Of a stretch of 64,000 nt of DNA, positions 1 through 62,848 are shown one piece after another (the stretch's first letter is position 1; every line of letters begins with the position of its first letter). Source of the stretch: Mobula hypostoma (Eukaryota); contig NC_086097.1 in the NCBI RefSeq assembly GCF_963921235.1, positions 158,226,001 to 158,290,000 on the forward strand. Reading direction: 5' to 3'. The notes under the pieces are model-generated. The model did no database searches, was not told the origin of the DNA, and saw only the letters and a program-made list of their open reading frames with translations. The translations under genes and the position numbers were made by a program.

Positions 1-709
1 CAACTTTCATGGAAGTGGTTAAAAAGATATAATAAAGACAAACTACCATCTAACTGAGTAATTATTATGTATTTAAATGAAATACAGAACAAATAAGAAC
101 ACTACCAATACCAGTGGTTGTCCGTCGCATTCGACAATGACAGGAAATGTGTGGGTGGGTGGTTAAAGTGGAAAAGCCATTGCACTGGGGAAGTTCCACT
201 CTCTCGACATTGGAAGTCCAGGATGAGTAGACGTCACATTTGGGGTCTCCCCTGCTTGCAGTTAATGACCATGACTACTTTTGTGCCTCATTATGCTCTT
301 CACTCTGCAAATAGTGTTGCAGAATTGCCTTCTTGGCCATTGGATCTCACTGTTGATCTCACCCATCCAGTCTGTTGGAGCTAACTTTGCATGCTAGAAT
401 AGGCGCGTCCCTGTCTCACCGGGTATGAGACCTGCTGGCTACCCTCACCTGCTTAAACCCGCCTGTCAAAGCAGTGTACCAGAGTGTGGTCACTGTTGCA
501 TGCAAACAGCTACTTGGAGCCAAGGTAAGAGCTGAGTGTCTAGTGGGGATAACATTCAACATTCAAGATGATTGTTGATGCCTTCAAATTATTTGTAGGC
601 CCTAACTTGTTGAAGCAGTGAAATTGTTTTATTTTCATTCGCGGCTTTTTCTGGAGTTTCCAAGTCTGAATGCTAGAAATCGCAGTGAGCAAAACAGTTC
701 TGAATTGAC
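1..709 (-). mobile_element. Decayed pogo/Tigger-like DNA transposon remnant (1-114 and 550-709), interrupted by the element at 115-549
   Basis: Reverse complements of ~60-114 and ~550-700 match ~16487-16540 and ~16170-16300, so this is a dispersed repeat. The second copy reads '...TQNCFAHCSF', resembling the end of a pogo/Tigger DDE domain. The family call is an inference. Confidence 0.4.
115..549 (-). mobile_element. 5'-truncated, decayed copy of the HDV-like-ribozyme retroposon
   Basis: The reverse complement (tccccactagacactcagctcttaccttggctccaagtagctgtttgcatgcaacagtgaccacactctgg...) aligns with 57266-57560. Both copies end in ...acaacca. Confidence 0.8.
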
Positions 710-15959: not shown

Positions 15960-16545
15960 GACACTACCCTTCTTATCTGGGACAGGTGACTATTGCTGAA
16001 CAGATTCTAACTAATGTCAATCATGTGCTCTTGCTGTTGTTGTTAGGCATTACATTGTACTTTCAGCAAACAGGTTTTTGAACAGTGCCCATTGTGATTT
16101 GTGTTCAAAGAGCTGTAATCTTTGTCACTTATACTGTAGTTTGCAAGAACTAAGAGGTAAGAGGACTCAGAACTGTTTTGCTCACTGCAGTTTCAAGCAT
16201 TCAGGCTTGGAGATGGCTGGGAGTGAAAAACCATTTCATTACGTCAACAAGTTAGGACTGACAAAGAATTTGAAGGCATCCACAATCATCTTGAATGTTA
16301 CAATGAAAGTGAAGAATTGGAAGATGCAATTGTCAAATTGCATTGTATAAAGGCAGTCTATTATCTGCACTAGGTGTCTGGACTGATTTTGTTCATTTAC
16401 AGTCAATCAAAATAACCTGGCATTGTACCTCTGGATGAACTTCTCTAATAACTATTAGAAACGGTTACAGTTTTGTAGTACTGTCGTAGTATTGGTAGTG
16501 TTCTAATTACTTCTGTGTTTCATTTAAATACATAGTTTGTTACTT
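15960..16545 (+). mobile_element. pogo/Tigger-like DNA transposon remnant
   Basis: Homologous to 1-114 and 550-709; NCFAHCSF motif. Confidence 0.4.
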
Positions 16546-57017: not shown

Positions 57018-57186
57018 ATTTATGTTCAAATTGTATTTGGATGTGCAGTCTAAGACCTCTGTGGAGCAAGTTTTGGAAAATGGGATTAGGTGAGAAGCTC
57101 TTTATTTTGATTAGGCTGGAACAAATATGACTGCTTATTCTTTCAGACATTCAGAAGGTGCTTGGCAACCTGTTACCAGTGGGGTG

Positions 57187-57738
57187 TATGGGGTGTCAGG
57201 GAGGGGTAGCACCTCTGGTGGGGGAACATGTCGCGTCCTTTTCAAGGTGGTTAGTCCACCTTTGGTCCCCACCTGGCACTCAGCTCTCACCTGTGGCTCC
57301 CCGTAGCTGTTTGTATGCGACAGCGGCCACACCCCGGGCAATGGCTTTGACAAGCCGGCTAAACCAGGTGAGGGTAGCCGATGGGTCTCAAACCCTCAGT
57401 GAGATAGCGAGTTGTCTATCCCAGCATGTGAAGACAGACTCCGGCAGATTGAGCGGACGAGACCAATGGAAGGCCCAATGGTCAAGAAGGAGGTCTCTGC
57501 AAGCGTCGTGGAACGTGTAGAGCACGACAAGACACAGAAGACGTCCTGGTCATCCACTGCACCTAGTCCCATCTCCAGCCGTCTCGACTCTGTCTTGCCA
57601 CTGGATCCAGATGGGAATTGGGAAGAGAGCGTGAGGCTGACACTGCGCAACTCTCCTTCACTTAAATCCAAATTGTGCTAGTTTCGACACCATCATAATA
57701 GTGTCAAGGTCCTCATTGATGTCGACGATGGATGAACA
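57187..57738 (+). mobile_element. Apparently full-length non-coding retroposon (552 bp) headed by an HDV-like ribozyme, inserted in a decayed CR1 RT
   Basis: TSD accagtggggtg 57175-57186 / accagtgggatg 57739-57750 splits the CR1 VTSGVPQG motif. A homologous copy lies at 115-549. Confidence 0.85.
57190..57374 (+). ncRNA. HDV-like (nested double pseudoknot) self-cleaving ribozyme candidate
   Basis: P1 GGGGTGT 57190-57196 / ACACCCC 57329-57335; P2 CTCTCACCTG 57284-57293 / CAGGTGAGGG 57365-57374; P3 GGC 57295-57297 / GCC 57326-57328; L3 TCCCCGTA; P1.1 CC 57299-57300 / GG 57336-57337; GCAA; P4 GGCTT/AAGCC; J4/2 GG-C57359-TAA. Confidence 0.75.
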
Positions 57739-59554
57739 ACCAGTGGGATGCCACAAGGATTTGTTTACATTATGTGTTGGAGGAATAAAGTGAATGGACA
57801 TTTGGCCAGATTTGTTGATTACATAATAATAAGTGGGAAGGTTAACTGATGAGGCCGGTGACATAGAGAGAGATATTGATAGGTTAGATAGGCAGGCAAA
57901 TGATTGGTGAAAGGAAAGTAATCCAGGAAAATGAGCAGTCCTTTATGTTGAGAAAGAAAATTCCTATTCCTTGTGTTCTTTATTTAATTATGCAATCTAT
58001 CTCTTTAGAATTGCTGTATAAAAGCACTCCCTACCTTTTGGGTACTAGTGTCTGCAGATAACCTTCAGAGAAGTGCTCTGATAGGAATCTAAGGATATTG
58101 TGAACAATTCTTGTTGCAAAAAAGAACCTGAAAATATTTTGGCTTTGTGTGATGTGAAAGTGAGTTTTAGCGGTGCTTCAGGCCATAATTACCTCTCACA
58201 TAGGCAAACTGTGGCTGCAAATTTACCCTAAATTTACATGTTTGGTTTGACATTTTCTTGAAAACTGTTTCCACATTAAGTGAACTTTGAAGTGTACATG
58301 TTTTTATCATTCTTAAAGACTTTGATATTTCAATTTTAATCTCATGTCTTTGTGGTCTTTAGTCCTAATTGCACTCATCTCAGCCTGGGCATCAGTCCTG
58401 GCTGCACTTAACTTTTGTGGTAATGGAACTTCTATATTGTCAAGGTCTTAAACGTAGTGGCGATGCTTGTAGGCAGCCTCTGCACCTCAGCCAGTGCATG
58501 TATCACCCATCAATGTCTAGTCCTCCAGCTCAGGATGTTGTAGAACTGGATCTACACTTTGTGGTGATTCTTGCTACAAAGGATGAGATCAAATGCAGAG
58601 ACATCTTAGCTCCAGTGCATTCAATGCAGGGTGCAGGAGTAGAATTAATGAATCTTCTTACCTGTGAGAAAGCTATAATAGCAGACCTCTATCACCAAAT
58701 CTTCATGAACCGTTTTCTGTGAGTTTGGTGGTAAGAAACATTGGTTTTCCATTTGCACAGAATTTGGCCCATACCTCTCATTAGAAGTATCCCTCTGTTG
58801 CAATGTAGAAGGCTGGTTTCCTGAAACATACTTGCCATGATTCTTTGATTTTTGTAAGGTGTTCTGTTCTCTTTAGATCTTTTGCGTGTGCTGTGGTGTT
58901 TTCTAAAGGCAGTGCTAGATGGCTGCTTATTGCTATTAACCATTGCTTCGCATGAAGGTGGAAGAAATTTGCCTTCTGAACTCTAACTTGACGGCTTCGG
59001 TGGTTGCAGTCAATTTTTCATCAGAGTGCTTTGTATGCTTAGTAAAATCAGTTTAAATGTATACATGGTGTATTTTCCAGCTTGATTTGAATCAATATAG
59101 CTGAGGTTCTATTGATGAAAATCAAATTCTTGGAGGGTTCACTCCGTTGTCAAATCCTTGGCTCTTCCACCAGCAGCAGCTATATGATTTTCTTTCCCTT
59201 TTTTACTCCCACTCCTTTGGGACACATTATCTCCCCCCCCCCCCGCCATGAGTGGAATCTGAGTGGAGGCCCTTGAGGTCAAATTTCTGTTCATCCCATC
59301 AGACTTATAAATGTTTCTGGACTTGTTGACTTGATTTGCATGTTATTTTTGAGTTGGTGTGTACTCATCATTTTTTTGTTGCACAGAAATCCTTTTCAGA
59401 AATTGGCATGTCTGTTGTTTGAAGGTTATTCTAGCAGTTCCCGGACCAAGTCAGTGCTTAAGTTCTAATTGAAAGTACATCATGATTTGCTTCTCATTCC
59501 CTGCTGGAAAACTTGGACAGAATCGCTGTCAAGTAAGCTCATGTGTTGCCTCTA

Positions 59555-60273: not shown

Positions 60274-60478
60274 CAAGCAACGCACATAAAAGTTGCTGGT
60301 GAATGCAGCAGGCCAGGCAACATCTCTAGGAAGAGGTACAATCGACATTTCGGGCCGAGACCCAGGGTCTTGAAATGTCGACTGTACCTCTTCCTAGAGA
60401 GCTGTCTGGCCTGCTGTGTTCACCAGCAACTTTTATGTGTGTTGCTTGAAATTCCAGCATCTGCAGATTTCCTCGTGT
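60274..60478. mobile_element. Palindromic head-to-head pLTR insertion, 15-bp TSD, placed in the tail of an older pLTR (~60180-60273)
   Basis: Arms 60274-60351 and 60372-60448. TSD ttgctcatttgagaa 60259-60273 / ttgctcattttagaa 60479-60493. Confidence 0.9.
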
Positions 60479-62848
60479 TTGCTCATTTTAGAATCCAGGT
60501 TTAAAATGTAAACCATAAAAATTAGTAACTACGTTAAAAAGAAGCAAAGGATGGGATTTGTATTGGCAAAATTAATTGTGGAAAGGAGAATAAATTTGTT
60601 TATGGAGTTTATTAGATAATGTGCAGCAGGGAGGGAGTCCTGGGACTTGAAGCACAAGAATGTTTGTGAAAGAAAATTTTGAAGTAGAATATATCGGGGA
60701 AAGAGCTGGCATCAGGGACTGGTATAGATTGCTTCAGCTAGCAACTTGACATTGCAGGCATAATATTATTGCTTTCTGTGCTAAAATCTCCAAGCAGAAG
60801 CAGTGCCAGAATTGTCACCGTCTTCCTGGGAATTTCAGCAGTTTCATGCTTGCGGAATCCAATTCCACATGGGCAGGATTACTTCCCATTCTGCAGAGCA
60901 GAGATTCTGCAGGTTTTAAGTGATGCATTCAGAATCGAGAATGCACCTTCTGCAAAAGACTTCCCCAGTTGCAGGAACATAGATAAGTTGTGATAAGAAC
61001 ACTGTCAAAACCCCTCAGAACATTTCAGGACCATTCATATAACTTGGTGGTTCTTACTGAGTGTGGCATTTCTCTGTTGAGTTCTCAGTGGTATTTATCA
61101 GCAATACATTCTCATCCTGTCAGGTAGGGAGTCCCTGTGCTGTATCTGCTGGATGATACAGACTCAGCATAAGGGCCTGTACCTAGATTACTGCTTGAAG
61201 TCAAACCACAGGATTTTTAGCAACGTTGTTTGCCTCTGAGTAGAGTTAGGTACGTACCCAACAAATATCTGTAAACTCTGCAATGGATGTTACAATATAA
61301 GGCTTTTGCAATATAATCTTGTCACTGATAATGCATTAATTGATGCAAACTTAGCAATCCTTTAAATGCCACAGTGGATTTTTGGTTTGACTCCTGCGCC
61401 TTTTGACGTGTTATGTTTTGGCTGCACAATAAAATGAGGTCAGAAATATATCCAGAGGATGGTTAAAATGAACTCCCTCGAACACAATCCTGTTGAAGTG
61501 AATAGGAGAGATCAGTGGTGCCACAACACACAACTTGCTCATCCAGTCTGTGGAACAGTGTTGCCTGTACTGAACAGAGTGCCCCCTCATTGAAAGATCA
61601 AAGGTTTCCTCTCAAAGACTTTGAAAACAGTTGGAGCCATACCCTGGACTTCACAGGTCACAAAATTAGGAAATGACAGCATATCTCTACAGGTCCTCTC
61701 CAGGTGATGTCAGGGTTCTGTTTCTGAGAATTGTTGGTAACTTGAACTACATAGGTCCTCCCCAGCTTTCAAATGATCGACCTCTGAACAGACTGTACTT
61801 ACGATCGAGCATTTGGGAGACTTTGGCGTGATGGATTTGCAACAGCAGCCCCATGGTCTACATAAGCTCGAAAGCTGGGGCAGACCTATGTCGGTCTTTG
61901 ACACCCATAAAATTGCAAAATACTTTATCCTTATTGAAATTAATTATTTAGAATTAAAAATATTTATATAATAGAAACAAACTCAGATTTGAATACGTCT
62001 CCATTCCTGATCTTTTGCTGTGGTTGCATAGCCGTCCGTGTCCCTGACTCCGGCCATCTGTCTGTGTACCCATCCACCTGCCCGCAGACCCTAGCTCGGG
62101 CTGCGGACTTGACTGTCCATGTCCCCAGCTCTGTCTGTGCACACGCCCATATGCCCACAGCTCCTGGTTCTGGCAGCGGTCCCACTTGACTGTCTGTCCC
62201 TGGCTACGGTTGCCTACCATGTCTGTGTCCATAGCTCCGGTTGCCTCCCCACCTGCCTGGTGCTGAAAGTTCCTGCATTTGGGCACATTCAGAGGATAAG
62301 TTCCAGACCTTCATTGACTAGTATATGGTAGAGCCTGAGAGGACAGGTATTGCCATGGCTATTGCTGGGTGGACTTCAGGGCTGGTTTGAAGTGGCAGAC
62401 CCGGGTGCAAGAGTGAAAACCAACTGATATTTAGCCAATTTAAGCAGTGAGCCAGGTTGAAAAGATGTAAGGTTTTGAGGGTGGAGTTCAGCTCACTACT
62501 CTGTGTCAGCCAGGAACTCCCACCTGAGGCAATCCTGTATTTGACTTGTCTTGCTCTCTTGCTGCTACCATCAAGAGTGGTGCAGGAGTCCCATCAGGTT
62601 CGGGAGTAGTTGCTGCCCTATAGCCGTCGGGCTCACAGACTGGCTCTCTGCACTGCACTGACTCTGTAGCTAACTGGCTGTACTTGCCTCAGCATTGATC
62701 TGGCTACATGACTGTGGGCTCACTTTCGGGAACTCTGCAGTTCATGTTTGTGTATTATTGGTCTACTTATTTATTGTTTGCACGAGTTGTTCTTCTTTTT
62801 CGCACATTAGATGTTTGGCGGTCTTTGTTATGTTTTTTGTAGATTCTA

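Follow-up and report, generated by a model that had tools for sequence, protein, structure and literature searches.

A candidate HDV-like ribozyme with a hairpin inserted in L3 and a predicted third pseudoknot in RTE-type retroelements of Mobula hypostoma

A short retroelement in a 64,000-nt stretch of Mobula hypostoma DNA (hereafter the window) begins with a sequence that we predict with high confidence to fold as an HDV-like ribozyme. Its L3 carries an additional predicted hairpin that is fixed in the family, and the hairpin loop is complementary to a hexamer lying ~50 nt beyond P2 (47-58 nt past the P2 core). On the comparative evidence we incline slightly towards reading the covarying hairpin and the loop-hexamer pairing, which would be a third pseudoknot, as a peripheral brace on the HDV-like core.

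Results

Seven lineages were compared, namely subfamilies A, B, C, D and F and the loci L062 and L063. Of 176 candidate cores, nhmmer retained 162, which were assigned, on features outside the loop and the hexamer, to A (45), B (65, a few F copies included), C (42), D (4) and other (3), plus the single copies L061-L063; subfamily F was added from 30 loci. The predicted parts in the window are as follows.

57181-57187, forward strand: P1 5' strand, partner 57329-57335; the heptamer is identical in L061-L063, and G57181 is the predicted cleavage site
57188-57282, forward strand: structured J1/2 domain with closing helix 57191-57200 / 57272-57281; fold -40.8 kcal/mol, z -1.61
57283-57293, forward strand: P2 5' strand, 11 bp with 57365-57375
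57295-57297, forward strand: P3 5' strand GGC, pairing with GCC 57326-57328; invariant in the seven lineages
57298-57305, forward strand: canonical 8-nt part of L3, TCCCCGTA, with U20, C21-C22 and G25
57306-57325, forward strand: inserted hairpin 57306-57324 plus spacer G57325 (20 nt); stem of 5-6 bp, 7-nt loop 57312-57318
57329-57337, forward strand: P1 3' strand ACACCCC and the GG of P1.1; invariant in the seven lineages
57342-57357, forward strand: P4 hairpin; 40/42 pairs and 3 double changes in the seven lineages
57358-57364, forward strand: J4/2 with C57359 at the catalytic position
57365-57375, forward strand: P2 3' strand, pairing with 57283-57293
57377-57420, forward strand: two predicted hairpins 3' of P2, P5 (57377-57400) and P6 (57403-57420)
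57424-57429, forward strand: downstream hexamer GCATGT, with which the hairpin loop is predicted to pair, directly 5' of the GAAG(A/T)C anchor (57430-57435)

The nested double pseudoknot of P1, P2, P3, P1.1 and P4 was recovered in the right order in all seven lineages. P2 (76/77 pairs, one double change) and P4 covary; P1, P3 and P1.1 are invariant and thus carry no covariation information. P1.1 would be formed by C21-C22 of L3 with GG 57336-57337. UCC and G25 of L3 are kept in 7/7 lineages while positions 23, 24 and 26 vary, and a role for the U20/G25 reverse wobble in L3 is given in passages of PMC4227795. The C of J4/2, a residue whose loss cannot be rescued according to PMC9901934, was present in 7/7 lineages and in 100 of the 105 copies with a parsable region. 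By eye, the closing helix of J1/2 (~95 nt) can also be read in other lineages. Across 11 copies, 84.5% of the P5 cells and 85.2% of the P6 cells are paired, with double changes at two pairs and one pair, respectively. T57294 could pair with either the P1 or the P2 strand.

Minimum free energy folding of the whole region gives no pseudoknots and was no better than shuffles (z -0.17). The preliminary description of this DNA had expected the variant to be missed by descriptors with a fixed L3, and for the Rfam models in this window the expectation is borne out: the scan returned no HDV-type hit among 4 unrelated matches at E<=1. Elsewhere in the window, two repeat copies of ~100-130 nt lie head to head at 60274-60481; the long hairpin that they make accounts for the Rfam matches to mir-5681 and mir-641 below threshold.

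Published descriptors fix L3 at 7-8 nt, and its U27 can be deleted. The canonical loop is unpaired, 7-8 nt long (PMC1874588; CPEB3 preprint 10.1101/2022.09.22.508989) and covers U20-U27 (PMC1874588), and its residues 25-27 are flexible in HDV crystals (PMC4227795). In place of such an unpaired loop, the L3 found here totals 28 nt (26 in C and L062) and encloses a hairpin. The 20-nt insert reads exactly as the preliminary description had given it: GCTGTT (57306-57311), TGTATGC (57312-57318), GACAGC (57319-57324) and G57325, followed by GCC (57326-57328). On its own the hairpin folds at -5.2 kcal/mol (z -1.99), and 11 of 200 shuffles did equally well. As this is weak evidence, the case is supplied by the family comparison.

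When the genome was searched with a pattern of exact flanks, 3010 matches had a spacer of 15-40 nt vs 10 with 3-14 nt, and reversed controls gave none. The ten short-spacer matches are heterogeneous deletions in decayed copies. The hairpin is therefore conserved in the family, one of the points on which the preliminary description had let its reading stand or fall. The 5-bp stem is paired at 35/35 positions over the seven lineages, with double changes at three positions: G-C to A-U in F, and C-G to U-A and U-A to C-G in L063. Wobbles occur in subfamily C and L062, and a loose end from sequencing run X21 has a fourth stem type, GTCGC/GCGAC. In F copies with A at the A-U pair, the opposite side is TG in 13, CG in 2 and CA in 1; the counts in B are CG 12, TG 10 and CA 6. 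T57314 of the loop is a copy-level change, C being found in 27 of the 30 closest copies (window copy among the 30). We regard it as highly probable that the hairpin is kept as a structure. The seven-lineage fold and the intact stem thus uphold the earlier claim that the fold is HDV-like and that a structured insert, conserved here, follows L3 position 27, and the covariation that had been proposed as a check is seen in the stem. Its support does not come from the changes originally cited, which belong to another copy in the window.

116-540, reverse strand: second copy, decayed and 5'-truncated, of the older subfamily B; hairpin 492-510, hexamer 389-394

This copy is without the catalytic C, one P3 pair and the P1 5' strand. 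The pair-preserving changes cited earlier are CpG decay in a dead copy, and such sites decay in both directions in this subfamily; at the loop-end CpG site of subfamily B, 30 parsed copies gave TG 11, CA 9, CG 6 and other 4. Around the second copy (window 116-660 on the reverse strand, and 16227-16534), both flanks are common to L032, L034, L042 and L044. The subfamily B copy is nested in another repeat, and the two appear to have spread as a composite.

A competing pairing of TGTGGC (57292-57297) with GCCACA (57326-57331) had also been put forward as a possible switch. Both strands are present, and the isolated segment 57292-57331 folds into an extended form of this pairing (-14.8 kcal/mol), but a switch role found no support. 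The pairing is intact in 6 of 8 lineages, and L061 and L063 have an A-C mismatch. In L063 the switch base changed together with its P2 partner (G-C to A-U); hence the switch position tracks P2. The pairing is better seen as a misfold risk than as a selected switch.

The preliminary description overlooked both the pairing of the loop with a downstream site and the retroelement context. Between loop and hexamer, 42/42 pairs are standard in the seven lineages, 39 of them Watson-Crick. The loop GCAUGC faces GCAUGU in A, F and L062 and GCAUGC in B and D, (A/G)CACGC faces GCGUGU in C, and GUGCAC faces GUGCAC in L063. Equally good pairing was obtained in 120 of 5040 partner permutations, which is the floor of the test because only C and L063 differ among the lineages. 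In 6/6 lineages (F left out), no other site within ~320-350 nt formed as good a duplex with the loop as the anchor-adjacent hexamer. Cognate duplexes ranged from -7.1 to -9.6 kcal/mol, against -1.3 to -3.0 kcal/mol for the C loop and -3.3 to -4.8 kcal/mol for the L063 loop with non-cognate partners; GCAUGC-type loops can wobble-pair with the C partner too (-7.0 and -6.7). Both sides of the site are changed in C, the downstream dinucleotide being CG in 30 of 37 C copies vs CA in 44 of 44 A copies. As the C partner is the reverse complement of the loop and not a loop copy, complementarity rather than repetition is indicated.

A MAFFT alignment of 11 real copies had 92.7% of cells paired and 95.5% in the third knot, compared with 32-43% in slid controls. 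Its structure score was reached by 0 of 500 shuffles, a control that ignores relatedness. In this alignment L063 has a different hexamer in register (3/6 pairs), and the complementary one lies inside a 10-nt insertion, still abutting the anchor; its four double changes may consequently be one replacement event. The GUGCAC pairing is seen in L063 only, and this loop type gave 0 pattern matches in the genome of the window, where a further search recovered other subfamilies. L350 and L351 were considered as counter-examples and dropped, since most of the 30 loci of their subfamily F show normal pairing. The knot of the window copy itself is weakened (4 Watson-Crick and 3 G-U pairs, -3.6 kcal/mol) because of its private C-to-T change at 57314. 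The loop hexamer is palindromic in 6/7 lineages, which pure cis pairing does not demand, and the kissing form, in which a hairpin would present the downstream hexamer in its loop, is predicted for subfamily A and the window copy alone. Taken together, the alignments and duplex energies make it probable that the loop-hexamer pairing is real.

Two further observations concern this region. In L063, the loop and its partner (621-640 and 744-752) share an identical 8-mer at the end of the 10-nt insertion; where the loop is palindromic, a local copy of it may come to serve as the new partner. TCTCA in the loop of P5 has its complement, TGAGA, immediately 3' of that hairpin (window 57386-57405), and the two might form a small further pseudoknot; the match is weaker in B and C.

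A search with a motif taken from the RTE 5' UTRs that PMC5786205 prints uncovered a separate RTE family, termed H (583 matches, 25 fetched as L431-L455). It starts at the P1 strand and has a 3-bp P3 and an ordinary 7-nt L3. Only 4 nt separate P2 from the anchor, and the P5/P6 region is absent. The full 5' pattern fits 10 and the 3' pattern 19 of the 25 loci. Its HDV-like fold begins with C at +1, P1.1 consists of one pair, and the P4 region is long. Beyond the anchor on the 3' side, its sequence aligned in register with D and L062 (0/500 shuffles) and less strongly with A and B (1/500 shuffles), while homology to C and L063 was not significant in the shuffle test; nhmmer gave no match of family H to the window. 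Judged by these alignments, the predicted hairpin and the downstream module are jointly absent in H, which is one presence/absence contrast.

The element carrying the predicted ribozyme has the following limits.

57175-57180, forward strand: upstream target site duplication (TSD) copy ACCAGT; downstream copy 57739-57744
57181-57738, forward strand: non-autonomous RTE-type retroelement of subfamily A with ribozyme head, RTE 5' UTR piece and RTE 3' end

It is ~560 nt long, ends in a short (CAA)n-type tail and contains no ORF of at least 150 aa. A search for further copies in the 3.5-Gb genome gave 2804 first-look candidates, of which 40 were scored and 30 fetched. These 30 closest copies aligned over ~515-570 nt and had unrelated flanks. 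The alignment of 28 of the 29 other copies began no more than 4 bases from 57181; a TSD of at least 8 nt lay within 3 bases of 57181 in 18/30 copies, and one of at least 9 nt ended exactly there in 10/30. Since the query for these copies included 11 flank bases, the boundary was rechecked in sets not selected by flank, using the copies long enough (A 17/23, B 28/65, C 33/42). Conservation stepped up at G57181 in each set: 13-17 of 17 inside vs 7-9 upstream in A, 18-26 of 28 vs 9-16 in B, and 26-33 of 33 vs 10-17 in C. G57181 opens GGGGTGT, the complement of ACACCCC (57329-57335), and the element therefore starts at the predicted cleavage site. Judged by the boundaries and TSD ends of the DNA copies, the RNA would begin with the first base of P1. 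At -1, just before G1, the most frequent base is T (42/78 copies of subfamilies A, B and C). This base should not pass on after cleavage; a target preference, an added base or an AT-rich genome may explain it.

With the longer 5' UTR of the metagenome locus L062, ~4-kb elements with endonuclease and reverse-transcriptase pieces were retrieved (RVT_1, E 6e-19; Exo_endo_phos_2, E 4e-4, below its cut-off). The ~4-kb endonuclease/RT elements of subfamilies C and D contain the same predicted ribozyme. The 5' part of the window element is common to six ~4-kb autonomous elements at 72-84% identity, its first ~430 nt having ~75% identity to 4-kb APE+RT elements. The 3' end of subfamily A gave no match to C or D; judged by eye, the 3' half is similar to the pieces of RTE-1_PSi, RTE-3_AMi and RTE-3_PM that the PMC5786205 supplement prints. 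High copy number, TSD, microsatellite tail and lack of an ORF are those of bipartite non-autonomous RTE elements. With a head shared with APE+RT elements and a 3' half like Repbase RTE, the window element is, as classified from these matches, most likely a bipartite, non-coding RTE derivative. L303, L320 and L326 have the subfamily C head on short elements with another 3' tail, which suggests tail exchange among RTE families. RNA-library runs X19 and X20 contain pieces of the family at small shares, and their contigs reveal no transcript starts.

Outside this genome, loose-pattern loci in prokaryotic genomes (120) and viral contigs (100) were rejected as chance matches. The P1 strand and J4/2-P2 matched together in 3 of the 240 loci examined, all from the own genome. 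A tighter viral pattern found one unrelated locus, and an RTE protein scan of viral contigs found none.

Discussion

HDV-like ribozymes free non-LTR elements from read-through transcripts (PMC6765202, PMC3774820). We infer a similar course here, in which the element RNA would be made by read-through transcription and the ribozyme would cut before G57181 to create the element 5' end. The hairpin would leave the core at position 27 and dock its loop on the 3' extension of P2. Such a helix may tie the P3/L3 side to this extension, bracing the catalytic core and offsetting the cost of the 20-nt insert and the ~95-nt J1/2. Cleavage would then be favoured only once ~60 further bases had been transcribed. 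Granted that the pairing exists, we put the chance that its main role is to promote folding or cleavage at about even. The larger picture is more tentative and, in our estimate, falls somewhat short of even: a widespread RTE lineage with a triple-pseudoknot HDV-like ribozyme, invisible to current models, in which docking of the L3 hairpin 3' of P2 would control cleavage, cutting would need ~60 nt more, and the HDV family would have its first peripheral tertiary contact.

A brace is not the only possible use of such a knot. It might be real but act after cleavage, locking the 5' end for RTE protein binding, protection of the 5'-OH RNA, second-strand synthesis or cap-independent translation, with cleavage independent of it. 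The same loop-hexamer covariation would fit this reading. Transcription reaches the partner ~55 nt after the core has been completed, the knot is kept in the non-coding subfamilies A, B and F, and protein-binding and IRES-like roles have been ascribed to the HDV-like ribozymes of R2 and L1Tc (PMC6765202). The catalytic loop, two bases from G25, is however an expensive site for a hairpin that is a handle and nothing more; family H multiplied without the knot (583 pattern matches), and translation is useless to non-coding copies. We hold a purely post-cleavage role to be unlikely, though worth keeping in mind. An off-switch, in which the transcribed hexamer pulls on L3 and silences the ribozyme so that cleavage is limited to a short co-transcriptional window, seems improbable. 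The downstream region of the L1Tc ribozyme attenuates rather than activates (PMC4035085), and pairing of L3 in trans opens P1.1 in CPEB3 crystals (10.1101/2022.09.22.508989); yet the pairing proposed here uses the added loop and not the P1.1 bases, and it is hard to see much benefit in silencing an RNA that has already been cut.

The self-complementary loop hexamer, found in 6/7 lineages and in two kinds (GCAUGC and GUGCAC), raises the idea of a dimerisation (kissing) site between two element RNAs, with the downstream match secondary. The loop presumably resembles the dimer-initiation loop of HIV-1. Dimers mediated by L3 are known for CPEB3 (10.1101/2022.09.22.508989), but the loop of the autonomous subfamily C is non-palindromic (commonest forms GCACGC 8 and ACACGC 7 in 39 parsed copies) and has a matching downstream change, so that dimerisation as the primary function appears quite improbable. 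It is very improbable that the hairpin is a tolerated passenger, or that the TGTGGC/GCCACA switch is the point, and that the downstream match is inherited chance. Only two informative events back the knot, the isolated segment does favour the extended pairing, and the flexibility of HDV residues 25-27 in crystals (PMC4227795) would suit a passenger. Against this, the switch pairing is disrupted in L061 and L063 at a place where P2 covaries, the anchor-adjacent site is the best loop partner in 6/6 lineages, and hairpin and module are missing together in H.

The retroelement setting of the ribozyme is already known biology. L3 is part of the HDV active site and has been treated as nearly fixed in length. 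A stem in L3 with a covarying partner beyond the accepted ribozyme boundary, in thousands of copies, would extend the fold, and the family would offer a natural test of peripheral activation among HDV-like ribozymes. If there is indeed a third knot, activity may be misjudged in constructs that stop at P2, and position 27 would suit the engineering of switches.

In a full-text literature search, no HDV-like ribozyme with an L3 stem or a third pseudoknot came to light; the fold could already be shown in Ruminski 2011, Webb 2009, and Webb and Luptak 2011, which lie outside the search. As far as the literature searched goes, the predicted structural variant is new. The supplements of PMC5786205 and PMC7245038 did not contain the ribozyme region of the window lineage. 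Passages of PMC4908430 indicate that peripheral tertiary contacts had not previously been suggested for the HDV family.

The closest known systems are the 5' HDV-like ribozymes of non-LTR elements (R2, L1Tc/ingi, RTE, baggins), which, in the passages concerned of PMC3774820, PMC6765202 and PMC4035085, likewise have a nested double pseudoknot and a C at the catalytic position of J4/2. Their elements also start at the first P1 base, and the ribozyme is common to autonomous and internally deleted copies. The variation described in these passages covers P1, P2, P4, J1/2, J1/4 and L3 spacing, with no L3 stem. Unlike them, the window sequence has, following L3 position 27, a hairpin of 19 nt, and a third pseudoknot with a site 3' of P2 is predicted. 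The large structured J1/2 and long P2 are shared with drz-Agam-2, where the P2 has 11-12 bp and these features speed cleavage (PMC4908430). The element itself is built like bipartite non-autonomous RTE LINEs of the WALLSI, Bov-A and RTESINE types, with a 5' UTR piece, an RTE 3' end and no ORF; the paper describing them (PMC5786205) mentions predicted 5' ribozymes only in general terms. Natural hammerhead ribozymes have an unrelated fold and serve as an analogy only, in that a loop-loop tertiary contact locks their helices round a small core (PMC4908430).
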